Positions 1 through 27,287 of a DNA stretch of 55,308 nucleotides are shown piece by piece. This stretch comes from a virus. Positions within the stretch are counted from its first letter, which is position 1. Each line of letters starts with the position of its first letter. The stretch lies in IMG/VR virus record IMGVR_UViG_3300045988_052571; one strand, given 5' to 3'. The notes beneath the pieces were generated by a model. The model was not told where the DNA came from. It worked only from the letters and a program-made list of their open reading frames with translations, and ran no database searches. The position numbers and the translations under genes were made by a program.

Positions 1-55
1 GTTGGTGGACGAACCGCAACGCCGGACGAACCCATGCGTTGAGATTTCGCCTTAC
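1..55. repeat. 55-bp terminal direct repeat identical to 55254..55308 (circular-contig overlap or short terminal redundancy)
   Basis: Both window ends read GTTGGTGGACGAACCGCAACGCCGGACGAACCCATGCGTTGAGATTTCGCCTTAC; an ORF reads through the junction. Confidence 0.9.
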
Positions 56-1033: not shown

Positions 1034-1435
1034 TTAACCTTTCCAACGACTCTTTGCGGCGCGCACATCGACGTGCACAAAGTTGTCGTTGTAATACCGC
1101 CCGATTCCGCCCCGGTTGGGGAGCAGGGTTTCGACGTATGCGGCCAGCGTATCCACCGACACGCCAGCGATCCAGATGTCCGCAGCCTTTCCGTAGAGGT
1201 GCTTGCTGTAATGGGACGCATTCTTCTGCTTCGCATTATGCGACGCAGTACGGAACGCAGAGTTGATGTTCACCGCTTTTCCAAAGTGGGTGCGGATTTT
1301 TTGCAGAACTTCCACCAGTTCCGAATCAATAAAGATCGGATCAGAGCCGTCCTTGCATCTGAACTCGCGCACCTTAAAATCCGTGGACAGCTTTTTCGTT
1401 CCGTCCTTTGCCAGCGAATAGGCGTTAATCGCCAT
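1034..1435 (-). CDS. endolysin, peptidase M15 family (zinc D-Ala-D-Ala carboxypeptidase-like)
   Basis: 133 aa; motifs SAFRTASHN, HLYGKAADI and FVHVD match the H/D/H zinc ligands of M15 peptidases. Confidence 0.75.
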   Translation of the reverse strand: MAINAYSLAKDGTKKLSTDFKVREFRCKDGSDPIFIDSELVEVLQKIRTHFGKAVNINSAFRTASHNAKQKNASHYSKHLYGKAADIWIAGVSVDTLAAYVETLLPNRGGIGRYYNDNFVHVDVRAAKSRWKG

Positions 1436-1598
1436 CGTTCACATCTCCTTTCGGGCGCAGGTCTGCGCCGCAGGCTCTTGTACAGCACTCGGCAATGAGC
1501 GTGGCAAACTCCCCGCGCTCGTCGGAGGTATCAGCCCCCGCCGCTTCCAGCTTCTCAAGCAGCCTTTCGCACAGATCGGGCCAACTTCTTTTCTTCAT
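1425..1598 (-). CDS. hypothetical small protein (start uncertain)
   Basis: Internal Met of ORF 1425..1643; overlaps the RT 3' end; no recognisable motif. Confidence 0.2.
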   Translation of the reverse strand: MKKRSWPDLCERLLEKLEAAGADTSDERGEFATLIAECCTRACGADLRPKGDVNDGD

Positions 1599-2739
1599 AA
1601 GTCCCTTTCCAGATGTCCGTTTCCGGCCCGGTTTGTCTACCATACTTCTGCATGGTGTCCCGGTAGATCAGGTTCAACCGCCCGCGCAGGCTTGCGCTCT
1701 GCGTGTGCGCCAGCAGTCCTTTGATGCTGGCAACGCGGCGGTCAAAATCTTCCTTGCTCATTTCCCCGGTGGCGTACATCTCCGTTATCTTCTTGACCTC
1801 TCGCTTCAACCTGCCGACGGTGGACTTGCGCAGTTTCATGTGGGTTGCGTAAATCCGCACTCCTACAAATTCAATGCCCATGCTCACCGGGCGGATGCAG
1901 GTCTTGTCGTTCAGGTCAAGGAACAATTCATCCCGCAGGAATGCTTCGATTCTCTCTTTCCACTCTTGGAGCTGTTCTTTCGTTTCGGCCAGCACAATTA
2001 CATCATCCATATACCGTATATAGTAGTGGATGTGCAGAACGTGCTTGGCGTATTGATCCAGCTCGTTCATGTAGATATTTGCGAAAAGCTGGCTTGTGAG
2101 ATTGCCTATCGGCATACCCACGTCGTATAACCATTCTTCCGGCGGCGTGTCTTGCGGTGTTCTCCCGCGCGGCAGGCCAAAGGCTTCTGCCCGACTGTTT
2201 ATCACGCTGTCCAGGAAGCGCATCAACTCCGGGTCTTTGATTCTTCTGGATAAAATTTCTAGCAGCTTGGCATGGTTTACCCGGTAGAAGAATTTGGATA
2301 TATCCAGCTTTAAGTAGTACCACTTCGCGTCTGGTTTCCGGCTGACCTGCCGCATCCAGTATTGCAGGCGTTGTGCCGCTTTGTGGCTGCCCTTATCTTT
2401 CCTGCACGCATACGAATCCTCGATAAAGAGTTTGTCGTATATCGGGTTGAGGTACTGGTATAGGCTCCACTGTACGATACGATCAGGATAGCGCAGGGCC
2501 ATCACCAAACGCTTCTTTGGTACGAAAACCCACAGCTTGCGGTACGGGCCGAGAATGTATGTGCCGCCCTGCATCTGCGCTTGGATCACAAACAGGTTAT
2601 GTTCAAACGCCGCAGTAAAAGCCAAAATCTCTTGTCTGTACCGTTTTCCTTTGCGGGCGTTATGGTCGGCCTCACAGAGATATTCAAACTCCGTTATGAC
2701 CGCCCATGCGTTTTGAATTGTCTTTATTTCACCTGGCAT
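1555..2739 (-). CDS. DGR reverse transcriptase
   Basis: 394 aa; DGR-type motif MPIGNLTSQLFANIYMNELD and catalytic YIRYMDDVIV; lies directly downstream of the TR; RBS AGAGG. Confidence 0.9.
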   Translation of the reverse strand: MPGEIKTIQNAWAVITEFEYLCEADHNARKGKRYRQEILAFTAAFEHNLFVIQAQMQGGTYILGPYRKLWVFVPKKRLVMALRYPDRIVQWSLYQYLNPIYDKLFIEDSYACRKDKGSHKAAQRLQYWMRQVSRKPDAKWYYLKLDISKFFYRVNHAKLLEILSRRIKDPELMRFLDSVINSRAEAFGLPRGRTPQDTPPEEWLYDVGMPIGNLTSQLFANIYMNELDQYAKHVLHIHYYIRYMDDVIVLAETKEQLQEWKERIEAFLRDELFLDLNDKTCIRPVSMGIEFVGVRIYATHMKLRKSTVGRLKREVKKITEMYATGEMSKEDFDRRVASIKGLLAHTQSASLRGRLNLIYRDTMQKYGRQTGPETDIWKGTYEEKKLARSVRKAA

Positions 2740-2919
2740 TTCTGCCTCTTTTCACCGTCGCCGTGTGTGACGTTACCGCCTCCACGGCAATTCAAAATTT
2801 TTCCGGGTTGCTCTCCCGGAATGGAAATGCGCTCCTTTAGACACACGCACCGACTATGACCCGTAGATCACAGCCCCCATATCCAGCGTGGTGTCGCCGC
2901 ACATAATGTGACGTGGTGT
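2740..2919 (-). ncRNA. DGR RNA spacer between TR and RT (expected to be co-transcribed with the TR)
   Basis: ORF-free 180 nt between TR and the RT start, in the position of the priming spacer in characterised DGRs; boundaries are inferred. Confidence 0.35.
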
Positions 2920-3035
2920 AAAGCGGAACGGCCCCCGATGTTCCAGTTGGAATTGCTGCGCGGATTGTTGAGGTTCAAGTTGAACAGGCCGGCGTTGCCG
3001 CCATTGTTCCAGTTGCCGCCCCGATTCGGAAGCCG
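2920..3035 (-). repeat. DGR template repeat (TR)
   Basis: 116 nt aligning without gaps to 3635..3750 and (111 nt) to 49614..49724; every mismatch is at a TR adenine (T on + strand); Asn-codon-rich frame. Confidence 0.92.
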
Positions 3036-3074
3036 AGTATAGTACATTCCCATGTATGAAAATCGGCAAACCGC

Positions 3075-3518
3075 TTATAGCGTCTTTATGTAGCCGCCCA
3101 GCAGTTTGCCTATTTCCTCGTTGTATTTGGCCCACACCTCGTATTGGTGCATCGTAAGTGGCGGCGGGTACTTGCCCCCGTGTAACTTCTTACTCGCCGC
3201 CAGCCGTACCATTCCGCGCAGTACGTCCAGCTCCACGTCGAGATTCTGGGTCGTGGTTTTCTTAAAATATTTGCGGTCGATTTCGATACTCAGGCGATAG
3301 ATCGTCAGGATGGATTTCTTCAACTCGTCTGCGAGTTCCCGGTCTTTCCGTGGAAAACTCATTGTCAACGGGTAGCCGTAGTCCACCATTTCCTCGATCT
3401 TTTCCCTAAGATGAAACGGCTCCACCTTTTTCTCGTCGTTCTTTTCTCCCGCGCCCTTTTCGGGCTTCCCCTGCTGGGGCGGCACGTCGGCTTCTTTCGG
3501 CACAGTCAACACCTCCAA
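3075..3518 (-). CDS. avd: DGR accessory variability determinant (Avd)
   Basis: 147 aa, basic and helical; C-terminal EEIGKLLGGYIK resembles the Avd signature; located between target and TR. Confidence 0.8.
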   Translation of the reverse strand: MEVLTVPKEADVPPQQGKPEKGAGEKNDEKKVEPFHLREKIEEMVDYGYPLTMSFPRKDRELADELKKSILTIYRLSIEIDRKYFKKTTTQNLDVELDVLRGMVRLAASKKLHGGKYPPPLTMHQYEVWAKYNEEIGKLLGGYIKTL

Positions 3519-3577
3519 AAAATCGGCGCGGCGGCCCGCTGGCCCACCGCGCTTTCTGGTTTTTTATTTTTCGCTTC

Positions 3578-3599
3578 TGTCCTGCGCTACCGCGCAGGA
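3578..3599. other. GC-rich hairpin downstream of VR1
   Basis: GTCCTGCGC-TACC-GCGCAGGAC: 9-bp perfect stem, about 35 nt 3' of the VR1 end. Confidence 0.5.
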
Positions 3600-3609
3600 C
3601 GACAGCTTA

Positions 3610-4716
3610 TCAGGATTCAGCGGGCAGCTCCACAAAAGCGGAACGGCCCCCGACGTCCCAGTTGGAACTGCTGCGCGGATTGCCGAGGTACAAGTAGAAC
3701 AGGCCGGCGTAGCCGCCATCGCCCCAGTTGCCGCCCCGAAGCGGAAGCCGCTCTTCTGCGCCGTTGTTGAACCAGAAATAATCGCCGCCATAGGTGGTAT
3801 CAATGCCAGTGCCAGTAAGAGCGGCATCCGGCATCAGCGCCAGTGCCATAAGCACCAGCTTTGCAGCGTCGCCCACAGCAGAACCGGCAGTAATGTCCTT
3901 GAACGAGCAGCCGCGCCCCTCGTCTTTCTGGTCGGTGATTGTGGTGTCCCACACAGCCTTGCCGGACACGACGTTCAGCTTGATGGAGCCGGAGGTCGTG
4001 CCGTTGCCGTCGGGAGTAATCAGCGCACCGTCGCTGGCTCGGATTGCTTTCCATGCTGCGCTGGAAGCGGCCGTGGACACGGAGTTGTCGGCGGCGTTGT
4101 TGTCTGCAATGATTTGCAGTTCGCCCTTGTACAGACGCAGGCCGAGCAGCCACTCCCACACATTGCCGTTCATATCCCAGATGCCGTCCATCTGGCCGTT
4201 GTGACTCCACGGCAGCGGGCCAGTACCCGTCAGCACGCGGGCGGTCTTGCCGCTGTCCTGCACGCCAGGTGCGGGAATTGCATCGTATGTGGACTCGTTC
4301 GTGTCCTTGCCGTAATTATTATTGCCCCGCGGCTCACATCCGCGCTTGTGGCACCACAGGGCAACGGCGGCCCACTCGGCCACGGTGGCCTCATGCCAGC
4401 CCGTGCCGTTCGCCTTGGTCTTGCTGGCGAACCAGTCAAAGTTCTGGCTTACGGTGGGATCTTCTGCGGGCAGGCTGTATGCGCGCTCGTTGTAAACCTT
4501 GGTCTGGTATTTGCCAAAGTAGAAGCCTGCGATTTCCTTGCCGTTCACACGGAATGCCGGGTGAATGTCGGTGCTGGTGGTGGACAGAACATCACACAGG
4601 CGGAACGCAGGAATCCACACAAAGACAGACGGCATACCCTTGTCGTCCATCAGAATTTTGTTCTTGGGAAATGCGCACTGCAATGCAAATGCGGCTGCCT
4701 CGAAATTGTTTGCCAT
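3610..4716 (-). CDS. DGR target protein 1, FGE/C-type-lectin-fold receptor-binding protein (distal tail-fibre module)
   Basis: 368 aa; GWHEATVAEWAAVALW and GNVWEWLLG motifs; C-terminus LPLRGGNWGDGGYAGLFYLYLGNPRSSSNWDVGGRS is VR1. Confidence 0.9.
   Translation of the reverse strand: MANNFEAAAFALQCAFPKNKILMDDKGMPSVFVWIPAFRLCDVLSTTSTDIHPAFRVNGKEIAGFYFGKYQTKVYNERAYSLPAEDPTVSQNFDWFASKTKANGTGWHEATVAEWAAVALWCHKRGCEPRGNNNYGKDTNESTYDAIPAPGVQDSGKTARVLTGTGPLPWSHNGQMDGIWDMNGNVWEWLLGLRLYKGELQIIADNNAADNSVSTAASSAAWKAIRASDGALITPDGNGTTSGSIKLNVVSGKAVWDTTITDQKDEGRGCSFKDITAGSAVGDAAKLVLMALALMPDAALTGTGIDTTYGGDYFWFNNGAEERLPLRGGNWGDGGYAGLFYLYLGNPRSSSNWDVGGRSAFVELPAES
3635..3750 (-). repeat. DGR variable repeat 1 (VR1)
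   Basis: 116 nt; 13 mismatches to TR, all at TR adenines. Confidence 0.92.
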
Positions 4717-13700: not shown

Positions 13701-14483
13701 CAGCTTTCCCATGACCTTTTCTTCCGTGCTGGTCGCCGCGCTGCCCGCCGTCCACTTCAAGAACATATTGCGCAGGCTGGTTGCGGCGGAGTCGTCGTCA
13801 ACTCCCGTTGCCACCAGAACGTCCGCCATTGCGGCTACAGAACTTGTGTCCACGCCAGCCATTCCGCCCAGACTGCCAACGCGGGTTACAATGCCCGCCA
13901 GGTCGGCGGCTGTTGCATTCGTGTTGTTGGACAGGAAGTTTAGCTGATCCGCTAAGCCGACGATTTCTTTTTCCGTCAGGTTGAACGCCTGCTTCCACGT
14001 TGCCATCCATTTGCCGGATTGCTTCGCGTCGGAATCAAAGGCAATCGCCATCTTTGCGGCATCCGCTGTGTAGTTGAGGATTTCCGGGGTAGAGGTAACG
14101 CCGCTCTGACCAAACGCAGCAGCAATAGCACCAGCGTCCTCAAACTCCATAGGAATCAGGGTTGTCATATCTTTTAACCCGGATTTCATTTCGTCGTAAT
14201 GCACAGTGAAATTGCCGTTGTCATCTTTCAGTTCATCGACCACCTTTGCCACTTCTGCCATCGTGCTTTCGTACTTCATGGCATCTTTTGTGGCATCTGC
14301 AAAGAACTTCGTCGTGCCAACTGCAAGCCCGGTCATTGCACCGAGTCCAATTTTTCCGACGTTGCTTATCGTCTTTGCCAGCTGGCCGATCTGGCCGTTT
14401 GCGCTTTTTACGGCCTGCGCCAACGAGTTGTCAACTCGTCCGCCAATCAGGATAGAAAGTTCTAGTTCCTGATTTTTCGCCAT
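10734..14483 (-). CDS. tail tape measure protein
   Basis: 1249 aa, Gly/Ala-rich and helical; follows the chaperone frameshift pair. Confidence 0.85.
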   Translation of the reverse strand: MAKNQELELSILIGGRVDNSLAQAVKSANGQIGQLAKTISNVGKIGLGAMTGLAVGTTKFFADATKDAMKYESTMAEVAKVVDELKDDNGNFTVHYDEMKSGLKDMTTLIPMEFEDAGAIAAAFGQSGVTSTPEILNYTADAAKMAIAFDSDAKQSGKWMATWKQAFNLTEKEIVGLADQLNFLSNNTNATAADLAGIVTRVGSLGGMAGVDTSSVAAMADVLVATGVDDDSAATSLRNMFLKWTAGSAATSTEEKVMGKLGLDPVEFAKRMQKDSVGAIKDFFSRIQTMPQDQQISLMGQYFGKRAVESATKIAQNIPMLEQNLSWISDTDTSGKHAWEGSMENEYLTRSDTAENSIQLAQNAWRNLRESFGEAFLPVVKQGADWFVGFAKEVEANAPLIAGVTGQLAQLAQNGISALGGALESLWQIVKKFLEFINVKSENGSYDNSATVTKVIGGTAATFAAMSVAPQILQVVNGATRIFGGGKGTGPLSVAKDSIFGKGAAAAGNTVDMWNAAKLGAGLANSSMTQANGSPVTSSGIGGFLQNAENTIIGTIFGLKNKKQLTSKTSKPETLWKNVLKTADQITAAKSSGGLFGMLKGSSLGQYGTSVVNSVKGLHGTNLVQQTIGVGKWLGQTAKNGVGGIASSLAGIFGGPMQNAMNSPLGNFITSIGQKAVGLGKGAVGGVKNFAGNTLYGAKTLAGNIASSKVGQTAVKIGGGAVQGVKDVTQFLGAGLNVGQTVLGPVAGKLGGAFMGLLGTFGPVIAGIGSIIAVVSLLGDHFADIQQIVLKVFGPTGLKIFNTFFADVKKIGDGIKNAFSLDNLLNIQEKLSGKSMFGVDLGQAFGAAIPIIQSVTGLVSQIVDLGVNHIKPLLADVMSFVVNELFPAVAPLISTIIDLVGTTLVNAIKVIVDVIHGLLPVIEPVIQGIIGLIKGIASIGVSVVNTIIRALNKIHIKMPTKILGISLPEGIAGKEWGFSLAEVPAPAFANGGFTHGVSIAGEAGTEAVISFKRSVHDENVNHWVRAGRMLGVTGEDATRAIGPQNVSYFANGGFTDGSREKLDNLIDFSKAYGEYALRSNGIRTAGDAASLLWSVTNNSMAGDGSLALAATSIAADVAPIVLKKYLGDNEATSLLTEAAKTYNGGTVLSSWGNGVLTDTGVPLYVLPPRDAGTTELSEIPQAAYRSSRTSGGGDGDGMQFVFSPQITAYGKADRAEIEQIMREQFEKFKAEIKKEIKEEQRREQRTKYA

Positions 14484-14623
14484 TCCTCCGCCACCTCCTC
14501 GTTAATCTCCACCATTTCACGCACAGGGAGGTTGAGGTAAAAGTCTGCTCCCGTGTGCGTGACGGAGGCCAAACCTACCGCCGCCTTTCTGATTTCTTTG
14601 TAACCGCCTTTTACTCGAAAAAA
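14462..14623 (-). other. -1 frameshift extension ORF of the tail assembly chaperone (slippery T TTT TTC at 14617..14623)
   Basis: The minus strand reads GAT TTT TTC GAG TAA. The -1 frame stays open for about 50 codons (FFRVKGGYKEIRK...EEWRKIRN) to TAG 14462..14464, overlapping the tape-measure start. Confidence 0.55.
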
Positions 14624-15285
14624 TCCTTATCGTTCACCGCGTTTTTCAGGGGCATAGCCTCGCACAGAGGCAGACCCAGGAAGAACTTCACGTCCTTGCC
14701 AGTCGCCATGCTTGCCATCAGGCAGCAGTAGTAGTAGTTACTGGTGCGCTCGATGGCACGAATGTCCTCTTCCTCCATGCGGTTCTCTGCCTGCCGGATG
14801 TTCATGCCCGTAAGGCTGCCCACGCCGGAGAGGTCAACTTCGGTGTGGGTTTCGCCCTTGTAGAGATAGGGCTTGTGCAGGTGCAGAATGTGGGGGCGGG
14901 TGTCGCTCTCGTCTTTCTGTGCAGGGACAGTGATCGCGCCCTGCACCATCTGGCGCACCTTTTTGCTTGCGCCGATGGGCAGGAGTTTGAAAAACTCAAT
15001 GGGCAGGTCGGTTGCCTTGGCTGCCAGCTCGTCGGTGTAGGCGGTGGAGGTTTCGGGCATCACCATCGCGGCCAGTTCGCCGTCGCCCGTCAGCTTTTTC
15101 ACGGTCAGCACCGCATCCTCGATAGTCAGCTTGTCCAGGCCGGACAGGTCGATTTCGGAATATTCCTCGTCGTCGAATTTGTACGGCTTTGCCAGCTTCA
15201 CCAGCTTATCGTTGGTCTGCTCTGCGGCGGGTGCGGTCTGCTCGGTAACTTTCTGCTCAACTGCGGTAGAAACATTCTTTTCCAT
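14611..15285 (-). CDS. tail assembly chaperone (gpE/gpG-like)
   Basis: 224 aa from Met22 (RBS GAAAGGA); internal duplication; sits between the tube and tape-measure genes. Confidence 0.6.
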   Translation of the reverse strand: MEKNVSTAVEQKVTEQTAPAAEQTNDKLVKLAKPYKFDDEEYSEIDLSGLDKLTIEDAVLTVKKLTGDGELAAMVMPETSTAYTDELAAKATDLPIEFFKLLPIGASKKVRQMVQGAITVPAQKDESDTRPHILHLHKPYLYKGETHTEVDLSGVGSLTGMNIRQAENRMEEEDIRAIERTSNYYYCCLMASMATGKDVKFFLGLPLCEAMPLKNAVNDKDFFE

Positions 15286-15360
15286 GTTGTTTTTCCTTTC
15301 TCTGCATACAAAAAATTGACCGCCCCGATTCTTTTCCGGGGCGGTCATGCCGTTTGCTTT

Positions 15361-15888
15361 TTAGATCAGCGCGCTCACATCCGCCAGCATATCCTCGCCG
15401 TTGACGCGATAAATGCCGTTGAGCTTGTCGATCTCGATAATCTGCTGACCGTCGTTCTCGATCATCAGGTAGGTGAGTTCCAGCTTCACCTTTGCGTCCA
15501 TGCCCTCACCGGGCTTGATCTTACCGGGGGTGAACTCCTTGACGCGGCCCACCTCAACGATGCGCAGACCCTTGTAGGCATAACCGAGGTTCTTGTCCAC
15601 GGCCTGCTGGGCGGCGCGAATGGTAAGGTTTACCTGCCGCTTCGGGGACAGCATATCCACGAAAGAAGAGTAGATCAGGTTGAACGTGATCTCCTGTTCG
15701 ATGGATTCAAACTGGCCGATGTTCGGGGCGGAAATCTTGCCGAGGATGCCAGTGCCGGAAACGTCGATAGTTTCCGAGGTGATGGTCGGCATAGAAATCT
15801 CGCTGGTAACGCCGATTGCCTTATTGCCGTTGATGTAGGTGTTATAGGAGTTGACGACCTCCGGGGTCAGGTTAGTGTCGAGTGCCAT
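15361..15888 (-). CDS. tail tube protein (P2 FII-like)
   Basis: 175 aa directly downstream of the sheath gene. Confidence 0.7.
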   Translation of the reverse strand: MALDTNLTPEVVNSYNTYINGNKAIGVTSEISMPTITSETIDVSGTGILGKISAPNIGQFESIEQEITFNLIYSSFVDMLSPKRQVNLTIRAAQQAVDKNLGYAYKGLRIVEVGRVKEFTPGKIKPGEGMDAKVKLELTYLMIENDGQQIIEIDKLNGIYRVNGEDMLADVSALI

Positions 15889-15911
15889 AGTCTTTTACCT
15901 CCTTGCGCCGC

Positions 15912-17360
15912 TTACTGGGCCAGGGCGGTGGACAGCGCATCCGGGTCAAACTCGACCAGTTCCTCGATGTCCTCCGCAGGGCCAAACGGGGTCATGTACT
16001 TGTGGAAAGTAATGCAGCCGTTCAGCAGGTTGGTGGTCGGGTTCTCCGACTCAAGGTATTTCAGCTCATAGCGGGCGCAGATGCCGCGGGAGACAAAGCT
16101 GTTGCCGCGGACGTTCTCGCTGTCCACCAGGGCCTCGATCAGACGCTTATTTGCGGGGCTGTCCACTTTCTGAAAGTACGTCTGAATGAACGTGTTGTCG
16201 TCCCAGCAGAAGAAGCGGCGGACGCTAAACCATCTGTCCTTGGGGTCGGTGTTGCCGGGGTAGCAGGCAGTGTTGTTGCCCCACAGGCGGAAGCCGTTGA
16301 TGTTCAGCCAGGTTGCCACGCCAAAGCTGTTCACGACGTTGGCCTGCTCCTGATCGAGCAGCACTTCCGTGCCGTCTTTCAGACAGGCGGCGGAGATCGG
16401 GACGGTCTTGTTGGACGGGCTGACGTTCGGGATGTCGCCGTTATCCGCATCGGTCGCCACGGTCACAGCGGCGGCCATTGCAGAGCCAGCGTAGAGAACG
16501 TCGCCCGCCTTGGCGTACAGCCACACGGCGTAGCAATTTGCGCTGGTGACGGCCTGCTTCTCTTTCTGCTGCTTCACATCGTCGTACTTGGTCGCGCCAT
16601 TGGTGGAACTGTCGATGTCCACGATGCAGACGCAGTTAAACACGCCGTTGATACGGGTGGTCTTTGCCTGCAAGCCAGCAGACACGATGGCGTTCTCCGA
16701 CCAGCCGGGAGCGATCAGAATACCCGGAACCATGTTCAGCTTCGGGAAGATCATGCGGATGCACTCCATGCCGGACTCAACGCCAGCGGCGGAAACTGCG
16801 CCCACAATGTCCGCCGGGGTGACTGCGGACGGATCGATCTGAACGCCGCTCACGGTCAGGCTGGTTGCGGACTTGCCCGCGCCGCCGGGGATAACAACGA
16901 TATTGACGTAGCCGTTATCGTCAAACGCCGCAGTGTAGTCAGTGCCAGCGGTCAGCGTTGCGGATGCCGCCTTGACGACCAGCTTGTCCAGCAGCACGCC
17001 TTTCTCTTCCAGAACGGCAACTCCGCTGTTGATCTGCACGGTCTTTTCGGTCAGGTTCTTCTTGTGCTTGTTGGGATCAAGCACGTTGATAAGAACCATC
17101 GGTGCGACGTTCACGACCTTAAAACTTGCGCCCATGCTCTGGCAGAGGGTGTAGTTTTCGTAGTCGTCGCTGTAACCAACTGCCGCAGTTGCGCCAGCCA
17201 GCGTGTTTGCCAGCATGGGAACATTGGTGCAGTGGTAGGGGTCACTTGCCTGGTTGACAGGTGCAGTGCCGATTACGACCTGCAATCCTGCCGTGGCAAC
17301 GACCGGGGCAACCAGGCTGGTTGCCTGCTCAGTGGTATATACGCCATGCTTATATGCCAT
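15912..17360 (-). CDS. contractile tail sheath protein
   Basis: 482 aa; N-terminus MAYKHGVYTTEQATS is typical of sheath proteins; sheath-tube order. Confidence 0.85.
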   Translation of the reverse strand: MAYKHGVYTTEQATSLVAPVVATAGLQVVIGTAPVNQASDPYHCTNVPMLANTLAGATAAVGYSDDYENYTLCQSMGASFKVVNVAPMVLINVLDPNKHKKNLTEKTVQINSGVAVLEEKGVLLDKLVVKAASATLTAGTDYTAAFDDNGYVNIVVIPGGAGKSATSLTVSGVQIDPSAVTPADIVGAVSAAGVESGMECIRMIFPKLNMVPGILIAPGWSENAIVSAGLQAKTTRINGVFNCVCIVDIDSSTNGATKYDDVKQQKEKQAVTSANCYAVWLYAKAGDVLYAGSAMAAAVTVATDADNGDIPNVSPSNKTVPISAACLKDGTEVLLDQEQANVVNSFGVATWLNINGFRLWGNNTACYPGNTDPKDRWFSVRRFFCWDDNTFIQTYFQKVDSPANKRLIEALVDSENVRGNSFVSRGICARYELKYLESENPTTNLLNGCITFHKYMTPFGPAEDIEELVEFDPDALSTALAQ

Positions 17361-17374
17361 GATCTTTTACCTCC

Positions 17375-17668
17375 TTACTCAATGGCCGCTTTCACGGCGG
17401 CAAAAAGAATACCCGCTGCGCTCTTGGGATTTTCCAGAGCTTTGCGGGTATCACTGAACTGTTCGATGGGAACCAACAGGCCCTTTGCCATCGGAACCGT
17501 TTCAAGGAAGCGGTTCATCATATCCGGCAGCATATCGCCGTCGGCGTACACCGTGTACTGTTTCACGGTGTTCTTCACGGTCGGGCCGCAGTAAACGACA
17601 GGGCCAGTTGCCTTAACCTCTGCGGCGTTCTCTGCCTGCTCGGCCTGTTTTGCTTTTGCAGTGCTCAT
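17375..17668 (-). CDS. hypothetical structural protein
   Basis: 97 aa; coupled to neighbouring genes. Confidence 0.45.
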   Translation of the reverse strand: MSTAKAKQAEQAENAAEVKATGPVVYCGPTVKNTVKQYTVYADGDMLPDMMNRFLETVPMAKGLLVPIEQFSDTRKALENPKSAAGILFAAVKAAIE

Positions 17669-18201
17669 GTGAGTGCCTCCACTTCCGGGTTGTTTTCTCT
17701 GCTCATGCTTGGGCCTGTAACGTCCATCTGAACAGTAGAGAAATAATACGGTTTTGTATCGTCCTGCTGAATTACGCAGGTAATCGGCATTAAGACGTTG
17801 AAGTAATCTCCAAAGACGTTGTACACTTTGAAATGCTGACTAATATCCTGCATGATGTTGTACAAATCCAGAAGAGCCGGTGCCTTTTTTAGTTTCTCGA
17901 TCTCTTCCTTGCTTCGCGCAGGTGTTTGGTATGTACAGATAACCATGCTCATGTCAATCATTTCAGGCTCTTCTATGTCGGTGCTCCACCCGGCTGCTTT
18001 CACAAGCACGAATGGGGCAGCGGCGGCCAGTGTGTCCACATCTTCGTCGTTACCGTTATCGTCCGGGAACTCGAACTCAAAAAACTTCAGCTGCTTGTTC
18101 CCGCCCTGGCCGCTGAATGTTTTCCCTTCAAAGAGTTTTTCTAACTCCTTGCGCAGAACTTTTACCGCATCAATGGGGGTGTAGTTCGTCGGTTTGCTCA
18201 C
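17665..18201 (-). CDS. putative neck/tail completion protein
   Basis: 178 aa; called on position only. Confidence 0.4.
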   Translation of the reverse strand: MSKPTNYTPIDAVKVLRKELEKLFEGKTFSGQGGNKQLKFFEFEFPDDNGNDEDVDTLAAAAPFVLVKAAGWSTDIEEPEMIDMSMVICTYQTPARSKEEIEKLKKAPALLDLYNIMQDISQHFKVYNVFGDYFNVLMPITCVIQQDDTKPYYFSTVQMDVTGPSMSRENNPEVEALT

Positions 18202-18881
18202 TTCTTCTTACCTCCTGCCTGCATCAAGATTTTTTCAACCTCGTGCCGCAAGCGATCCTGCAAGATGATCTCGCTTTCCGGCTCTACTTCTTCCCGCCAT
18301 ACGGTACTGTGCATGGAACTTGCAGACGGCGCAGACATGGTGTAAAGATATTCGATAATCCCGTTTTTGCTCTTCCACCGTGTCGGCTTCGGATTCTTTG
18401 CAGGCTTGCCGATAATTCTTTGCACCATGCCAACGTGTCCGCTCTCGAACCGCACCAAGAAGCCCTTGCTTCCCGGCCCGATAAGTGTTTGTCCGCCTGT
18501 CAGGTTATCCATTGGCGATTTTTTCAAAACCTTGCCTGTATGAAATTCAGGCGAGTGTACCCAGTTTCCGCCCATGTGTGGTTCGGTTGGGTTTGTCTTG
18601 AAATCCGCCAGATCGTTTCTTCGACTTTTGATGAAAATTTCTGCGGTCGGATTCTGTATCGTTGCGCGGTTTCGGAGTTTCAGTTGGTTTAGGTGGCGGC
18701 GGCCCGCCGTGCTTACGGCGTATCGGAGTTTCGCTTGCCGGATCATCATGTTTTTTGCGCGGGTCGCCGTTTGGTTCACCGCGTTTTTCATGGCTCTAGG
18801 AGCCTTGTCCTTTGCGTCGCCCAGTGCCTTTTCTACTTCGTAGATGTTCGGCACAGATACGTCATAGATTGCCTTCGCCAT
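18198..18881 (-). CDS. HK97 gp10-like neck protein
   Basis: 227 aa; N-terminal pattern AMKNAVNQTATRAKNMMIRQAK resembles the gp10 family. Confidence 0.45.
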   Translation of the reverse strand: MAKAIYDVSVPNIYEVEKALGDAKDKAPRAMKNAVNQTATRAKNMMIRQAKLRYAVSTAGRRHLNQLKLRNRATIQNPTAEIFIKSRRNDLADFKTNPTEPHMGGNWVHSPEFHTGKVLKKSPMDNLTGGQTLIGPGSKGFLVRFESGHVGMVQRIIGKPAKNPKPTRWKSKNGIIEYLYTMSAPSASSMHSTVWREEVEPESEIILQDRLRHEVEKILMQAGGKKK

Positions 18882-19225
18882 TACTGCCGCACCCTCTCAA
18901 GTTCCACCAGGTACAACCCGTGCTCCGTCTGGCAACTTCTGATCGTGTAGCAGATTCCGTCGTACTCCATCAGCTTTCCAACCTTTGGGGCCGTGCCGTA
19001 ATCTTCCTTGCGAATGAAGAACTGCTTTGTGGACAGGTAAAGTCCCTGGTCAAAGTTCTGCTTTGCTCCTGCTTCCCAGTGCGCCTTACGTTCCTTGAGG
19101 GTCATTTCATACGGCACAACGTCAAACGGCTTCCCGTCGATTTTGTGCTGCTCCACAAACTCCTGAAAGAACACAGAGTCAATGTCCGCAAGGGCTTCTT
19201 CCAGAAAATCCGTCATGCGCTCCAC
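18881..19225 (-). CDS. putative head-tail connector protein
   Basis: 114 aa; called on position only. Confidence 0.4.
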   Translation of the reverse strand: MERMTDFLEEALADIDSVFFQEFVEQHKIDGKPFDVVPYEMTLKERKAHWEAGAKQNFDQGLYLSTKQFFIRKEDYGTAPKVGKLMEYDGICYTIRSCQTEHGLYLVELERVRQ

Positions 19226-19234
19226 CGCCTTTCT

Positions 19235-19465
19235 TTACGCGGTGGCCGCTTTGCTCTTTCTGGTGCGCTTTGTCGCCGGGGCGTTTTTCTGCGGCTCGAT
19301 CTCCGGCTGTGCTTCCGGCTGACAGACCGCAACGCCCAGGGCGGCCAGACGGTCAGCTTCATCATCCGGCAGGCAAACAAATTCCCCCGCCCGAATCAAC
19401 CGGGTGGGGGAGCCTGCCTTTTCACGGTAGCCGTAGCCGCCGGACGTGATCTGAACAGTTTTCAT
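19235..19465 (-). CDS. hypothetical protein
   Basis: 76 aa downstream of the capsid gene. Confidence 0.4.
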   Translation of the reverse strand: MKTVQITSGGYGYREKAGSPTRLIRAGEFVCLPDDEADRLAALGVAVCQPEAQPEIEPQKNAPATKRTRKSKAATA

Positions 19466-19484
19466 GCCGTTGCTCCTTTCTCAC

Positions 19485-20561
19485 TTACTGCACAACATCT
19501 GCTGCGTAGATGTAGGGGCAGTAGCTCTTGGGTGCAGCCAGCGGGCGGCAGCCCAGACGGAGTTTGCGGCTGTCCTCGGCCTGATCCACGACCAGCTTTG
19601 CCACGCGCTTTGCGGCATAGGTGGTGTAGTCGGTCTGGCCGTAGTCCATCTGGGTGATGGAGCCGTACATCATGTGGCCGCAGTCGGGAGCAGTAACCAT
19701 AGCTGCGGTCTTGGGGAAGAAGCTGGCGATCTGGCCGTTCTCGTCCTCGTAGGTTTCGTCCACAGAGAACACGTTCAGCATGAAGCCGCCGAAGTTCAGA
19801 ACGCCCATGAACACCACGCCGTCGTACTGGGTGAGCTGCTGGCGAATCTCGCCAACGATAATGCCGCTGTTCTTGTCGAGAAGCTGGCGGGTCTTTTCGT
19901 CGGCCAGGATGTAGTCGGCAGCGTCAGTACCCAGAATCAGGTCTTTTGCAGGCAGGCCGCGATAAGAGAGCATCCGGCACATAGCCTTAATGTCTGCCCA
20001 GAAGTCGCCGCCAGTGGCGTTCCACTTCTTTGCAACAGTGTAGGTATGGTCGCTCTTGTTGTCGTAGAAGCGCACGATCTTCTTGTCGCCCTTGGTCTTG
20101 CCGTCGATCATTTCCTGCATAGTGCAGCCGTTGGAGATCATGGTCTGTGCAGCCATCCATTCCTCGGTGCCTGCAATGCGGTTTTCCATGTCGTTCATGT
20201 CATCCGCCAGCAGACGAGCGGCGCGCTGTGCTTCGTCCATGCCCGGATACAGAGCCTCACCAAAGCCACGCTTTTTCAGCTCGTCCATGGTCAGCACGCG
20301 GGACGGCGCAATGTACGCAGGCTGGTAGGAATGGACCTCATAGCCGCGGCGCGCAATGGGAATGTCATGTACGTCGGGAGCAACGAAAGCGGCCAGCTTA
20401 CGGTCGCCCTTGCGGTACTCCGTCAGCACCTCGTCGGCCTTGAAAATATCGCCTGCCCCGGTGGGGAAATAGCGGTCTTTGAAGAAGCCACGCTTCGGCA
20501 CGATCTCTTCCGTGATGGCCTGAAGAATGACGTTATCAAAGAAGTTCAGCAGAATTGCCAT
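19485..20561 (-). CDS. major capsid protein, lambda gpE-like
   Basis: 358 aa from Met16 (RBS AGGAGG); order protease-decoration-capsid as in lambda. Confidence 0.75.
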   Translation of the reverse strand: MAILLNFFDNVILQAITEEIVPKRGFFKDRYFPTGAGDIFKADEVLTEYRKGDRKLAAFVAPDVHDIPIARRGYEVHSYQPAYIAPSRVLTMDELKKRGFGEALYPGMDEAQRAARLLADDMNDMENRIAGTEEWMAAQTMISNGCTMQEMIDGKTKGDKKIVRFYDNKSDHTYTVAKKWNATGGDFWADIKAMCRMLSYRGLPAKDLILGTDAADYILADEKTRQLLDKNSGIIVGEIRQQLTQYDGVVFMGVLNFGGFMLNVFSVDETYEDENGQIASFFPKTAAMVTAPDCGHMMYGSITQMDYGQTDYTTYAAKRVAKLVVDQAEDSRKLRLGCRPLAAPKSYCPYIYAADVVQ

Positions 20562-20577
20562 AGTAAACGTCCTCCTG

Positions 20578-20976
20578 TTACATTTCGATGATGGGCAGGA
20601 GCGCAATGTCGCGCATACGCAGAGCGTCCTTGTCCGCCTCGGTCATGGTGTAGCTGTCCTTTACGGTCAGCTTTTCCGGGTTGAAGCAGCCTGCCAGGTA
20701 GACCACGACAGTTTCATCGTCGGTAGAACCCACAGTCACGTCCTGCACCAGAATGCAGTCCGCGGTCAGCGTATCGCCAGAAGTAGCAGTGCTGCCCAGG
20801 ATGTACAGCTTGCCGTCCTTTGCGCTCTTGGCAAACACAGTGCCGCGAACATAGGTCGTCTCTGCCGCTCCTTTGGCGATTACGCCGGGGCCGACGCGCT
20901 TCTTCGGGTTGAGACCAACGATCAGGCCGTCGTACTCAACCTCGCCCAGCTTCTCGTTCAGCATCTTTTCAGCCAT
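20578..20976 (-). CDS. head decoration protein (lambda gpD-like)
   Basis: 132 aa immediately upstream of the capsid gene. Confidence 0.5.
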   Translation of the reverse strand: MAEKMLNEKLGEVEYDGLIVGLNPKKRVGPGVIAKGAAETTYVRGTVFAKSAKDGKLYILGSTATSGDTLTADCILVQDVTVGSTDDETVVVYLAGCFNPEKLTVKDSYTMTEADKDALRMRDIALLPIIEM

Positions 20977-20979
20977 AAC

Positions 20980-22191
20980 TTAGCCCTCCTTCTTGGGGTG
21001 CAGCAGGTTCTTCACCATTGCCCGCTTCTCGGCATCGGTCTGGTTCTGGTTCTTAGTGCCAGTGCCAGCCACGCCGTCGGGGGCTGCGCCGCCAACGCTG
21101 TTTGCGCCGCTGGTGTTTGCATCATCTGCGGTATCTTCCAGCAGCTTGCGGTGATTCTTCTTTGCGTCAACTGCCGCACGGTACGCAAGCTGCTCCGCAG
21201 AGCAGGCGTTCTCGCCGTACTTTGCCTCCGCCACCATGTTTGCCGGAATCGTTTCTGCGATCTCGTCAATGGCGGCAAGGCGTTCACGCTCGGCTTTCTG
21301 TGCGGCTGCGCGCTCACTGTCCACGATCTCTTTCACGAGGTCGGGGCAGCCATTGCGCAGTTCGTCCACGTTCTTGAACTCCATGTCGTTCCCTCCGTTG
21401 TTTTCTCCCGACGGTTCCGCCGGGTCGTTGTTATTTACAAAACCGTCGTCGTTGTCAGGTACGACCACGGCGCGGTTTCGCACAAATTCAGGTGCGCTAT
21501 CAAAAGTGCCTGGGACGGCCACGCTGTTTACGAACAGCACGCCGTTCCTGTTTTCGATTTTGGCGGTCTGGTTTCCCTCCACGATCTCGTCAATGAAACC
21601 GTTTTCCTTGGCCTGCTCCGCAGTCCACCACGTCGTCTTGTCCATCCATGCGGCCAGTTCTTCATTGCTTTTCCCGGTCTTTTTCTCGTACTGTCCGAGA
21701 ATCGTAGAGCGCATAACCGTAATGGAATCAATGAGTTGCTGCAATTCCTCCACGCCCATGAAGTTATCGCTCTTGGCTTTCACAGGATGAATCATGTAGC
21801 TGCTGTCCGGCGTGGCCTTGACGACCTTGCAATGACAGGCAATGATCGTTGCCGCACTTGCGCACAAGCCCTCTATCTGTGCCGTCACCGTGCCAGCGCG
21901 GCTTTCGAGCTGGCCACCAATGGCCTGCGCAGCCCATACGTCGCCGCCGCCGGAACAGATGCGGACGGTCAGATCATCTTCCGTCGGGATTGCGGCAAGG
22001 TCTGCGGCAAATTTCTGTGGGGTGATCTCGTCGCCCCACCAGCTTGTCCGGCTAATGTCGCCGTACAGCACCAGTTCCGCATGGCCTCCCGTTTCCGCCG
22101 AATTGCGAATCTGCCAGAACTTTTCACCTGTTTTCACTGGAACCGCCGACGGCCCGTTGAGCAGCAGGGTTTTGTGTTTGCGTTCCTGCAA
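20980..22191 (-). CDS. prohead protease (ClpP/S49-type) fused to a scaffold-like C-terminal region
   Basis: 403 aa; ICSGGGDVWAAQAIGGQL and GLCASAATII are ClpP-like; acidic/helical C-terminal half. Confidence 0.7.
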   Translation of the reverse strand: MQERKHKTLLLNGPSAVPVKTGEKFWQIRNSAETGGHAELVLYGDISRTSWWGDEITPQKFAADLAAIPTEDDLTVRICSGGGDVWAAQAIGGQLESRAGTVTAQIEGLCASAATIIACHCKVVKATPDSSYMIHPVKAKSDNFMGVEELQQLIDSITVMRSTILGQYEKKTGKSNEELAAWMDKTTWWTAEQAKENGFIDEIVEGNQTAKIENRNGVLFVNSVAVPGTFDSAPEFVRNRAVVVPDNDDGFVNNNDPAEPSGENNGGNDMEFKNVDELRNGCPDLVKEIVDSERAAAQKAERERLAAIDEIAETIPANMVAEAKYGENACSAEQLAYRAAVDAKKNHRKLLEDTADDANTSGANSVGGAAPDGVAGTGTKNQNQTDAEKRAMVKNLLHPKKEG

Positions 22192-23740
22192 TGTCGTCTA
22201 CCTCCTTTTTCATTGCGGCTTCGCCTTTGCGTAACCTCATGTTGGCCGCATAGCTGCCGCCCGTCATTTGCGCCGTTTCCTGTTCAGCTGTGCTAAACCC
22301 GCAGTCAACGCGCATCTTCGCCGCCTCGACTTCATCCTTGGGGTTCAGGTTCGTTCTGGCAGGGCCGTTCCATGCGCACTGCATATAAGCTGCGGCAATG
22401 GCCGGGTTTTCCAAGAATCCGGGTGCTTTTATTCGCCCACGCTGTACTGCCTCGCAAAACCACGCCTCATAAATTGGTCGGCAGAAGTTATCTGCAAACC
22501 AGTCACGGTGCATTCCGCAAGTGCGCCAGTATTCGTTTAGCGCGCCGCGGGCGGCGGAGTAGCTGGTCGAGAACTGCTTGTACAATACTTCGCTCGGAAT
22601 TTCCAGGGCGGCGGCCATCTGTTTAACAATGGCGTTCATAAAAGCCTCAAAGCCCGTCGCCGGGTGCTTCGGGTCTGCGAACTCCACTTTTTCGCCAGGG
22701 TTAAGGTCGATGAACGCGCCCGGAGCCAGTTCCACGCTGGTTTTGTCCGGCGTATCCACTTGCACTTCCTGCGGCAGCATTTCGCCCAGCGGAATTTCGC
22801 TGGACTGATCCTCTTTGGTGATAAACACTGTGAACATGGCGGAGATCACCGCTGCGGTCAGTTCCGCGTCTGTGAACCGTCCGAGTTGCTTTAGGCTTTC
22901 CAGCACCGGGGCAAGCAACGGAACGCCGCGCAGTTGCCCCGCCCGCTCCCGCTGCAACAGGAGTAGGACGTTTTGCCGCCCGGTCTTTTTTCCGTATGCC
23001 TCAACCCTCGTCCAGTGATCCGCCGTCAGCGTCGCAGTCGTGGCAGAGGCCAGCGGGTGACGGTCGCAAATCCAGTAGGCCACCACCATTCCGTCTGCAT
23101 CCGTTTCCACGCCCTGCGTAATCCTCTGGACAAGTCGCCCGTCGATTTCTCGCGGGGAGTCAATGTCCGTGAATGCAGGCGAACACAGACGGTCAGCTTC
23201 CACAATCCGCACCCGCAGATCATACGGAACATTGGGTGTCCGTTTGTTTTGGAGCACCGCCAGCGCGTCGCCGTTCATAAGAAATCCTGTAAACGCCAAC
23301 TGCTGCAACATATAGAAGTTGTCGATTCTGTCAGCGTCACAGGTCGGTTTGTCTGCCCACAAAGAAAATTCGCGCATAATCTGCGCGTTCACTTTCTGCG
23401 CTTCCTCGTCGGAAATGCCCAGGAACTCGTTATCAATCTGCGGTGTCGGCGTAAGCCCACCGCAAATTACGTTGGTTCGCATCGTTTTGATGGCTCCCGT
23501 TGCAAGCGGAACGCCCATGTAAGCGTCGCGGCTTCTTTCTCGCAGGACTCGGAGATTATCTTCGATGTCCCTTTTCGAGTCGCCGCCGTGCCACATCCAG
23601 CCCCGCATGGACTTCTTGTGCAGGTTTGCGCCGTAGTTGCCGTAGCCAGAGTTGAGCGTCTGGATTGCCATGCGCGCCGCTGCTGTCTTGACTGCCCGTT
23701 CCGGGGAAAGGGTGGCAAGCAGGTGATCCATAAATCCCAT
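22124..23740 (-). CDS. portal protein, lambda family
   Basis: 538 aa between gpW-like and protease genes. Confidence 0.8.
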   Translation of the reverse strand: MGFMDHLLATLSPERAVKTAAARMAIQTLNSGYGNYGANLHKKSMRGWMWHGGDSKRDIEDNLRVLRERSRDAYMGVPLATGAIKTMRTNVICGGLTPTPQIDNEFLGISDEEAQKVNAQIMREFSLWADKPTCDADRIDNFYMLQQLAFTGFLMNGDALAVLQNKRTPNVPYDLRVRIVEADRLCSPAFTDIDSPREIDGRLVQRITQGVETDADGMVVAYWICDRHPLASATTATLTADHWTRVEAYGKKTGRQNVLLLLQRERAGQLRGVPLLAPVLESLKQLGRFTDAELTAAVISAMFTVFITKEDQSSEIPLGEMLPQEVQVDTPDKTSVELAPGAFIDLNPGEKVEFADPKHPATGFEAFMNAIVKQMAAALEIPSEVLYKQFSTSYSAARGALNEYWRTCGMHRDWFADNFCRPIYEAWFCEAVQRGRIKAPGFLENPAIAAAYMQCAWNGPARTNLNPKDEVEAAKMRVDCGFSTAEQETAQMTGGSYAANMRLRKGEAAMKKEVDDIAGTQTQNPAAQRAVGGSSENR

Positions 23741-23756
23741 CGGCTACTCCCTCCCT

Positions 23757-23987
23757 TTACAGGTCGCGGGGAACAAAATGGTACATCCTGTTGCGCCCCG
23801 CCTTTTTTCTCGAAAGTTCTTCAACTTTGTTCGACCAATACTCAATGCGTTTCCCGATTTGGGTTACATCGGCGTAGGTCAGCATTCGGTTTCCAATCTG
23901 GTAGCTTTGGCCGTGCGTAACCTTGCGTTCCGCTTCCAGCCATGCGTCAAGCTGCGATTGTGCAGTTTCCAGTGTGATTCCCGCCAT
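23757..23987 (-). CDS. head-tail joining protein, gpW-like
   Basis: 76 aa between TerL and the portal, as in lambda. Confidence 0.55.
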   Translation of the reverse strand: MAGITLETAQSQLDAWLEAERKVTHGQSYQIGNRMLTYADVTQIGKRIEYWSNKVEELSRKKAGRNRMYHFVPRDL

Positions 23988-23990
23988 TGG

Positions 23991-25856: not shown

Positions 25857-25954
25857 CCCGCCTTACGCACTCCGGGAACATACAGATAATGAGCTTCTGG
25901 TGGAGTCTTTTACCCCACGGGCAATGCCTGCACTTGCGCCACGGTTTGCCCGGT

Positions 25955-27194: not shown

Positions 27195-27230
27195 CCAACA
27201 TCACCCGCACCTCGTTTCCAAAATCTGCGC

Positions 27231-27266
27231 AAAAGAAAAAGCCCCACGACTTGCGCCGTGGAGCTT
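27231..27266 (-). terminator. intrinsic terminator immediately upstream of the first late gene
   Basis: Minus strand: AGCTCCACG-GCGCAAGT-CGTGGGGCT followed by TTTTTCTTTT. Confidence 0.55.
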
Positions 27267-27287
27267 TGCTTACTTATCACTGTACTA

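Follow-up and report, generated by a model that had tools for sequence, protein, structure and literature searches.

We analyzed a 55,308-nt stretch of viral DNA (IMG/VR virus record IMGVR_UViG_3300045988_052571; this whole stretch is hereafter called the window) and found that it encodes a diversity-generating retroelement (DGR) which, with a probability of roughly 93%, is a working system acting on two target genes. The reading is drawn from the parts themselves, an adenine-only pattern of mismatches, the flow of sequence from template to variable regions in natural relatives, and a covarying RNA structure. As criteria for a DGR we used adenine-only mismatches between a template repeat (TR) and a variable region (VR), a reverse transcriptase (RT) of the DGR clade (IGxxxSQ in motif 4 and YxDD), and a C-terminal VR within a lectin or Ig fold. 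Further criteria were the accessory protein Avd (found in most DGRs), TR adenines placed in AAY codons, target-site signals at the VR, a cis-acting RNA, and VR diversification. All of these that can be tested in silico are present. An earlier note on this DNA, made from the sequence, had described a complete cassette; every element that it named was there, but the set was incomplete, as a remote second target with its own variable region (VR2) belongs to it too. The core elements are as follows.

2920-3035 (minus strand): TR, 116 nt, the invariant template, containing 26 adenines.
3635-3750 (minus strand): VR1, 116 nt, coding for the last ~38 structured residues of target 1.
49614-49724 (minus strand): VR2, 111 nt, matching TR positions 2921-3031, at the C-terminus of target 2.
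1555-2739 (minus strand): DGR reverse transcriptase, 394 aa, with PIGNLTSQ and YMDD.
3075-3518 (minus strand): avd, accessory variability determinant; public gene calls use a GTG start at 3503, giving 142 aa.
3610-4716 (minus strand): target gene 1, 368 aa, a TaqVP/Mtd-like variable protein of C-type-lectin fold, following the baseplate genes.
49597-50829 (minus strand): target gene 2, 410 aa, a paralogue of target 1, in the early region beside the lysogeny module.

Read on the minus strand, TR and VR1 aligned without gaps over 116 nt with 13 mismatches, all 13 at an adenine of the TR sense strand. Given the TR composition (A26 C37 G32 T21), 13 of the 26 adenines were changed in VR1 and none of the 90 other bases. 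Were the 13 mismatches placed at random, the hypergeometric probability of their hitting only the 26 adenines would be 1.9e-10. The earlier note had given the same orientation, length, and mismatch count; our independent alignment reproduced these values and contained no non-adenine mismatch. Homology between TR and VR1 ended sharply on both sides. Beyond the clean repeat, position 2919 (A in the TR, T in the VR) might add a 14th mismatch at an adenine. We also scanned the whole window with an adenine-tolerant search for further copies of the TR. Its match in VR2 differed at 13 positions, again all adenines (13/13), with a substitution pattern unlike that of VR1. No insertions or deletions separate the TR from either VR.

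Translated in the repeat frame, the TR reads RLPNRGGNWNNGGNAGLFNLNLNNPRSNSNWNIGGRSA, while VR1 encodes RLPLRGGNWGDGGYAGLFYLYLGNPRSSSNWDVGGRSA at the C-terminus of the 368-aa open reading frame (ORF) 3610-4716(-); both peptides are present as previously quoted. All 26 TR adenines fall in 12 AAY codons, one AGC, and one ATC, such that stop codons cannot arise in the VRs. The number of possible protein variants is ~15^12 x 16 (2e15) per target. ORFs of 61 and 93 aa that run over the TR were regarded as artefacts, the TR being a copy of coding sequence.

Copying of the TR into the VRs could be followed in natural relatives. Searching viral contigs by RT yielded 60 loci, and a self-comparison scan identified adenine-biased TR/VR pairs in the target-avd-TR-RT arrangement at 46 of them. 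Four complete genomes (RT 98-99% identical, genomes ~97.5-98% identical) served as the close-relative set. Target 1 differed from these relatives by 1.6-2.9% outside the VR and at 50-77% of the adenine-templated sites inside it, and non-adenine VR sites differed only where the TR of the relative itself differed. In the lineage comprising loci L005, L028, and L029, a block of non-adenine changes in the TR is mirrored in the VR1 of the same genome. The VR2 of L028 and L029, the members in which it was sequenced, likewise carries the non-adenine variants of its own TR. Within a lineage the TR does not vary, and where it has changed at a non-adenine base, which is rare, both VRs show the change as well. 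This variant block, shared by TR, VR1, and VR2, is the signature of copying from the TR to both VRs.

Protein clusters built at 90% identity contained 3,632 distinct sequences for target 1 and 2,957 for target 2, from which variation was read in 15 and 11 full-length members, respectively. Among the readable members, the 12 Asn (AAY) positions, the AGC Ser, and the ATC Ile were each occupied by 3-8 different residues. Columns outside the adenine-templated codons varied only sporadically, showing two residues or, at most, three. VR diversification alongside an invariant TR is seen at the population level, both in the relatives and in the cluster members. A scan of viral, metagenome, and genome contig collections using the TR pattern with N at each adenine gave no match, because the close relatives have a C-to-T change at one non-adenine TR position.

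Related clusters reached 14,370 sequences, and membership on this scale, for a phage protein so short, can itself serve to flag DGR targets in the database used. Two other loci of the same RT family, L039 (2840-2953 and 7432-7548) and L080, have two VRs each that are placed elsewhere, one VR of L039 lying 5.3 kb upstream of its TR. Thus, the number and placement of targets change within the RT family.

The RT matched RVT_1 (5.7e-23). Among solved structures its best match was 8ub7_A, the RT of Bordetella phage BPP-1 (bRT) in complex with Avd and RNA (E 1.1e-47), followed by group II intron (1e-18) and retron-type (1e-16) enzymes. The PIGxLTSQ segment, which in bRT touches the template base and the incoming nucleotide (Handa et al.), is conserved in the alignment of the two proteins. 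The IGNLTSQ and YMDD motifs reported earlier are both found within ORF 1555-2739(-). The protein between target and TR, previously described as Avd-like, is identified as Avd by Pfam model PF22296 (bAvd; 7.7e-21, 75.1 bits against a cut-off of 40) and by the structures of Bbp7 (4dwl; 7e-4) and Avd (8ub7_B; 5e-3). A small ORF, 1425-1643(-), overlaps the 3' end of the RT gene. Its length is 72 aa as the longest ORF and 57 aa as called in public annotations; it has a match in phrog_37638, and every close relative retains it. Small ORFs of unknown function also lie between RT and endolysin in BPP-1 and in the Faecalibacterium phage Lagaffe.

The RNA surrounding the TR was examined in an alignment of 22 distinct loci, running from 35 nt upstream of the TR to the start of the RT gene, with the structure drawn on the window sequence. 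It comprises the following elements, in 5' to 3' order of the transcript.

3041-3053 (minus strand): 5' strand of the putative stop duplex, ATGGGAATGTACT, 6 nt upstream of the TR; pairs with 2821-2833.
2852-2875 (minus strand): stem-loop, GGCTGTGATC-TACG-GGTCATAGTC, with a UACG (UNCG) tetraloop, a candidate Avd-binding element.
2834-2844 (minus strand): putative primer strand, GUGUCUAAAGG; pairs with the TR 3' end and the first bases after the TR (CUUUA + CACCAC).
2821-2833 (minus strand): 3' strand of the putative stop duplex, AGCGCATTTCCAT, a candidate analogue of the BPP-1 'cPRT Stop' duplex.
2798-2819 (minus strand): hairpin, CCGGG-AGAGCAA-CCCGG, followed by an invariant A run.
2759-2789 (minus strand): long stem, TGCCGTG/CACGGCG around GGCG-GTAA-CGTC (GNRA tetraloop), just upstream of the RT start.

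Standard pairs accounted for 83.6% of the cells in the whole structure, compared with 39-49% in slid controls. Changes on both sides of the pair were seen at 33 of 47 pairs, and none of 500 shuffles attained the observed values. The duplex joining 3041-3053 to 2821-2833 was paired in 93% of cells across the 22 loci, with 10 of 13 pairs changed on both sides. Double changes were likewise seen at 8 of 10 pairs in the stem-loop at 2852-2875 and at 4 of 5 in the hairpin at 2798-2819 (65% paired, in a gappy part of the alignment). For the stem at 2759-2789, the outer and inner helices were 98% and 93% paired, with 5 of 7 and 2 of 4 pairs changed on both sides. The duplex between TR and spacer (5 bp, a 1x1 mismatch, then 4-8 bp, the spacer strand ending in AAAGG) was present in 22 of 22 loci, and its distal halves covary. 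A GGRG/UUCC hairpin proposed by RNAalifold for the spacer alone was rejected, as the long-range duplex with sequence upstream of the TR covaries at 10 of 13 pairs. Rfam has no family for DGR RNA; its only matches in the window are RAGATH-5 elements elsewhere.

These helices are directly visible in the alignment, and their roles can be proposed by analogy with BPP-1. In the BPP-1 DGR RNA, Handa et al. described an Avd-binding stem-loop with a UNCG tetraloop just after the TR and a duplex of the TR 3' end with the spacer which presents the priming adenosine. They further described a 'stop' duplex joining the spacer to sequence upstream of the TR, a small stem-loop followed by adenosines, and a long RT-binding stem beside the RT gene. 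By this comparison, the hairpin at 2798-2819 may be the counterpart of the BPP-1 stop-element stem-loop and its A-minor adenosines, and the stem at 2759-2789 is a candidate RT-binding element. Analogy to Sp A56-G57-C58 of BPP-1 predicts that priming would start from the adenosine at ~2836 and that the base near 2923 would be templated first. On the upstream side, 6 nt separate the stop duplex from the boundary of TR/VR homology at 3035, and the helices bracket the TR exactly. The limits defined by the RNA coincide with both repeat ends, which would explain the boundaries of the 116-nt repeat.

Both target proteins could be related to a solved DGR variable protein. Target 1 aligned with TaqVP (PDB 5vf4) nearly end to end (residues 21-362, E 7e-58) and with phrog_2889 (4.8e-115). 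This homology bears out the earlier assignment to the formylglycine-generating enzyme (FGE)/C-type-lectin fold and supports a TaqVP-type, formylglycine-enzyme-like C-type-lectin fold for the target. The upstream neighbors of target 1 are of the Baseplate_J, Tail_P2_I, and P2 GpU types. Target 1 had also been called the last gene of the tail-fibre module. It does follow the Baseplate_J and Tail_P2_I genes, and the label itself is one of position.

Target 2 shares 34% identity with target 1 (E 5e-49) and also belongs to phrog_2889. It aligned with 5vf4 from residue 91 on (E 1e-45) and has an extra Cys-rich, partly disordered N-terminal region of ~100 aa with no counterpart in target 1. An AlphaFold model of target 2 built on 64 homologues (pLDDT 78.9) was matched by Foldseek to TaqVP (TM 0.68-0.73, E 1e-31), with Mtd, TvpA, and PvdO as distant lectin/FGE-fold matches. 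The model has a small hairpin-helix unit at residues 1-37 and predicted disorder at residues 42-96. Inspection of the N-terminal sequence by eye revealed no evident signal peptide or membrane segment. The diversified surfaces of both targets probably bind host receptors.

The ends of the window (1-55 and 55254-55308) are an exact 55-bp repeat, and L028 and L029 cross this junction, which places VR2 ~8.5 kb beyond the RT on the real molecule. The intervening DNA holds the lysis cassette and then the lysogeny module.

Downstream of each VR we found two kinds of signal, a GC hairpin and a periodic CTG array. The VR 3' end itself is GC-rich (CGGGGGCCGTTCCGC), and beyond the repeat the VR flanks do not resemble the TR flank. 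The flank features are listed below.

3579-3600 (minus strand): GC hairpin/cruciform of VR1, GTCCTGCGC-GGTA-GCGCAGGAC, with a 9-bp stem and a 4-nt GRNA-type loop.
49555-49572 (minus strand): hairpin of VR2, GCCGAGC-GGTA-GCGAGGC, with tandem G.A/A.G in the stem.
3595-3627 (minus strand): CTG array after VR1, five CTG at spacings of 7, 7, 8, and 8, spanning the stop codons.
49576-49600 (minus strand): CTG array after VR2, four CTG at spacings of 7, 7, and 8, mostly past the stop codon.
3526-3552 (minus strand): second GC stem-loop, GCGCGGTGGGCC-AGC-GGGCCGCCGCGC CGATTTTTT, followed by TTTTTT.

The VR1 hairpin begins 34 nt past the end of VR1 (fold z -2.6) and agrees with the description in Guo et al. 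2011, namely GC stems of 7-10 bp with 4-nt GRNA loops, 4-34 bp from the VR. The VR2 hairpin begins 41 nt past the end of VR2, slightly outside that published range. Its support comes from recurrence, as the CCGAGC-GNNA-GCGAGG form is found in many related loci. Across the family, the stems of the flank hairpins differ and covary, and almost all loops are GNNA. The flank of hairpin and array is absent at the TR. The second stem-loop, at 3526-3552, is a likely intrinsic terminator of the target-1 transcript, judging from its sequence. This stem-loop and its T-run were read directly from the sequence, having been missed by a simple terminator scan. A consensus scan counted 4 terminator-like sites against 4.5 expected from shuffling.

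Both CTG arrays sit between VR and hairpin and extend into non-coding DNA. When the whole window was searched on either strand for four CTG at 7-8 nt spacing (regular expression), the two VR 3' flanks were the only matches, with 0.095 expected from shuffles. Lagaffe also has CTG-type arrays after both VRs, one of them within coding sequence, and distant DGRs of CPR/Patescibacteria have CTTG at similar spacing. Across loci L001-L142, a chain of at least three C(T)TG units at 7-10 nt spacing was present in 42% of 72 distinct VR 3' flanks, which include those of the distant CPR/Patescibacteria DGRs and are not phylogenetically independent. The same chain occurred in 0% of TR 3' flanks, 0% of VR 5' flanks, and 0.7% of random windows from these loci. 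No chain in the 72 VR flanks exceeded five units.

In the available portions of Guo 2011, Wu 2018, and a 2026 PLoS Genetics paper we found no mention of a CTG periodicity, the literature not having been covered in full. The array is the one feature of this system that may be new. Tentatively, and with some doubt, it could be a widespread target-site element of DGRs, forming the part of the initiation of mutagenic homing (IMH) element that separates a recipient VR from the donor TR. More speculatively, the limit of five units would suit recognition by the pentameric Avd barrel, or by another multimer, on single-stranded or extruded DNA.

Our data suggest the following model, in which the priming site and the chemistry of homing are carried over from BPP-1. 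The RNA formed by the end of avd, the TR, and the 180-nt spacer would fold around the RT-Avd complex, as homology with BPP-1 suggests. The spacer adenosine at 2836 would then prime cDNA synthesis at the TR 3' end, near 2923, and the RT would copy the TR faithfully apart from its 26 adenines. Synthesis would halt at the duplex between the spacer and the sequence upstream of the TR (3041-3053), and the mutagenized cDNA would take the place of a homologous VR. The recipients would be VR1, in the 368-aa protein at the place expected of a tail fibre gene, and VR2, in the 410-aa paralogue. They may be marked as recipients by a 3' flank which has no TR counterpart, consisting of the CTG array and the GC hairpin with its GGTA loop.

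Several observations weigh against a working DGR with two targets. The best NCBIfam match of the RT is a group II intron RT model (127 bits against a cut-off of 300). NCBIfam has no DGR-RT model, so the placement of the RT comes from solved structures and motifs and not from phylogeny. Avd scored 74.8 bits with the NCBIfam equivalog DivGenRetAVD, below its cut-off of 80. A consensus scan identified no promoter for avd-TR-RT, with 3 promoter-like sites compared to 2.0 in shuffled sequence. In the automatic alignment, the stem-loop (74%), template:primer, and A-run (65%) helices were just 65-74% paired; for the elements at 2852-2875 and 2798-2819 the weaker pairing is due in part to alignment gaps. 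The VR2 hairpin is not the minimum-energy structure of its flank in a single-sequence DNA fold. In addition, the evidence for diversification stays at the level of populations, in relatives and clusters, and the virion location of either target is putative.

The NCBIfam result, together with weak matches to Drt and retron models, could be taken to mean that the RT is that of a retron, a group II intron, or an abortive-infection or defence system, lying near the repeats by coincidence. However, these matches are all far below their cut-offs, whereas among solved structures the DGR RT leads by 29 orders of magnitude. IGxxxSQ is present, Avd and the TR are adjacent, and we found no maturase or endonuclease domain, no Rfam intron RNA, and no msr/msd. 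Tested in this way, the idea was not supported, and we give it almost no weight. Nor do the repeats behave as paralogous sequence kept alike by recombination or gene conversion, with the adenine bias arising from selection on Asn codons and no reverse transcription involved. Some similarity is indeed expected of paralogous targets with 34% identity. Yet outside the repeat they agree only at that level, while the 111-116 nt of the repeat are identical at every non-adenine base. All 26 mismatches over the two VRs fall at adenines (p ~2e-10 for VR1 alone), and the VRs vary from relative to relative, whereas the TR, which is non-coding in its context and has avd on one side and a DGR-type RT on the other, remains constant. 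We regard this explanation as effectively refuted.

A DGR that was recently silenced or is rarely active, its VR differences having been written in the past, seems improbable but deserves some weight. An identical target-1 protein was found on 8 contigs, including one integrated and one joined copy, so VR1 was stable there. Furthermore, a 2024 paper on Faecalibacterium prophages (PMC11792537) detected no variation among reads of cultured Lagaffe, Lelie, and CP11, though their cognate genomes varied. Against silencing, all ORFs are intact, the catalytic and DGR motifs of the RT are present, and the RNA helices and hairpins are preserved. Non-adenine mismatches between TR and VR, which silencing would let accumulate, are absent. 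Less settled is the role of target 2, which might be a non-structural or lysogen-expressed protein (active, for instance, inside the cell early in infection or in lysogeny) whose ligand surface is diversified for another purpose, and not a second receptor-binding protein of the virion. We consider this a real, if less favored, possibility. Its gene is surrounded by early and lysogeny genes, well away from the tail module, its Cys-rich N-terminal region of ~100 aa has no equivalent in target 1, and the second target of Lagaffe occupies the same place with its function stated as unknown (PMC11792537). On the other hand, target 2 has the same fold and VR as target 1, its N-terminus shows no evident signal peptide or membrane segment by eye, and the discussion in PMC11792537 favors two Mtd-like receptor-binding proteins.

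Comparison with BPP-1 confirmed the match in gene order proposed in the earlier note. In the BPP-1 annotation, as in the window, the order is target (mtd), avd, TR, RT (brt), small ORFs, and endolysin, with the DGR between tail genes and lysis cassette. BPP-1 also provides the closest solved RT and a homologous Avd, and shares adenine-only mutagenesis and a GC hairpin with a 4-nt GRNA loop after the VR. The order of RNA elements is common to both as well (UNCG stem-loop, template:primer duplex, stop duplex, stem-loop with adenosines, and long pre-RT stem).

The two systems differ in several respects. The window has two targets of the TaqVP type, in which the whole domain is FGE-like, whereas BPP-1 has a single target, the trimeric Mtd (Foldseek TM 0.21 to Mtd). 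The UNCG stem-loop lies ~45 nt into the spacer in the window and at the spacer start in BPP-1. Past the repeat, the TR and VR flanks of the window are unrelated, while the BPP-1 IMH and IMH* are alike. The 4-5 unit CTG array contrasts with only CTG, CTG, and CTTG within the 21-bp IMH of BPP-1. Finally, the window differs in its probable host, a Gram-positive gut anaerobe.

The layout of the window is identical to that of FP_Lagaffe (Cornuault 2018), which has target 1, avd, TR, RT, lysis and lysogeny genes, and a second target ~8.5 kb downstream. That second target is homologous and Mtd/SUMF1-like, and both Lagaffe VRs show adenine-only mismatches (13 and 11). According to PMC11792537, Lagaffe has two VRs in two Mtd-like proteins; both vary among cognate genomes, from which two-target activity was inferred. 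At the DNA level, in contrast, just 18% of the cassette aligns, and the rest of the genome is not Lagaffe-like. The window encodes a large serine recombinase where an IS30-like integrase is annotated in Lagaffe, and VR2 is C-terminal in the window but internal to its gene in Lagaffe.

FP_Toutatis and Lelie (Toutatisvirus) provide the nearest backbone, with ~77% identity across roughly half the structural region and ~80% across portions of the replication region. They too have a DGR in the slot between baseplate/tail fibre genes and M15 endolysin, plus a second remote target. Their cassette, however, is ordered avd, TR, RT, target, and diversifies DUF6273 or Hoc-like proteins. TaqVP (PDB 5VF4, Thermus aquaticus) resembles both targets by near end-to-end alignment, in which the C-terminal VR segment aligns with the TaqVP VR. 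It differs in its ~31% identity, in belonging to a DGR of a bacterial chromosome, and from target 2 in lacking the added N-terminal region.

The window is a temperate phage with genes in the order baseplate/tail, target 1, avd, TR, RT, small ORF, and M15 endolysin, followed by two holin/hemolysin-like genes. A large serine recombinase (Resolvase, Recombinase, and Zn-ribbon domains) and an XRE repressor-like gene lie across the window junction. The recombinase, of 555 aa, is encoded by ORF 53686-55253(+) continuing into 1-100. The same prophage is found on a contig from a human gut metagenome (L143), next to host genes for DUF1836, DegV, phospholipase D, and an ABC transporter. These host genes begin exactly at window position 1, which places the attachment site at the window ends. 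The site overlaps the 3' end of the integrase gene, and a 122-kb scaffold (L144) represents the joined form.

Among GenBank phages, the closest DGR cassette is that of Lagaffe (69.5% nucleotide identity over parts of target, avd, and RT). Only these cassette parts align, and by genome-wide similarity the window falls outside Lagaffevirus. The structural and replication backbone (14400-29300 and 30200-45000), with the head, tail-sheath, and replication genes, is nearest to Toutatis and Lelie (77-81% over parts), and the closest RT in an isolate genome is from Faecalibacterium intestinale (77%). We infer that the carrier is a temperate, contractile-tailed phage of Faecalibacterium, or of a close relative, from the human gut. 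It looks like a Toutatis-like backbone with a Lagaffe-type DGR cassette and second target. From this combination of backbone, cassette, and remote target, whole DGR modules appear to be exchanged between phage lineages.

Two further repeat families were recorded outside the DGR. Four matches above the gathering score to RAGATH-5, a family that Rfam types as a ribozyme, lie within ~3 kb between phage genes (29174-29223, 29809-29859, 31128-31181, and 32013-32062, plus strand), as tandem small structured RNAs. Additional RAGATH-5-like repeats are found at 31427-31490, 33057-33106, and 33429-33478. In the lysogeny region, a 67-nt direct repeat (51457-51523 and 52060-52126, plus strand, 91% identical) contains a TATAAT-like box, a GGGGGTGAT ribosome-binding site, and an ATG. 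Its copies head plus-strand ORFs of 69 and 71 aa, the latter zinc-ribbon-like. From its content, the repeat looks like a duplicated promoter and leader.

The presence of a DGR is in itself ordinary here, as gut Faecalibacterium phages are known to be DGR-rich and a two-target, Mtd-like layout has been published for Lagaffe. The value of this system is that of an unusually complete natural example, with one TR and two paralogous targets, each represented by thousands of natural variants. Lineage-specific changes in the TR prove TR-to-VR copying at both sites, and the RNA architecture, backed by covariation, reproduces the BPP-1 cryo-EM model in a phage family of Gram-positive hosts. Together these form a clean data set for the RNA and target-site features of DGRs. 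If the CTG/CTTG array is a true recognition signal, it would bear on how the cDNA finds and replaces the VR, the least understood step of DGRs, and would be useful for target design in DGR-based mutagenesis tools.

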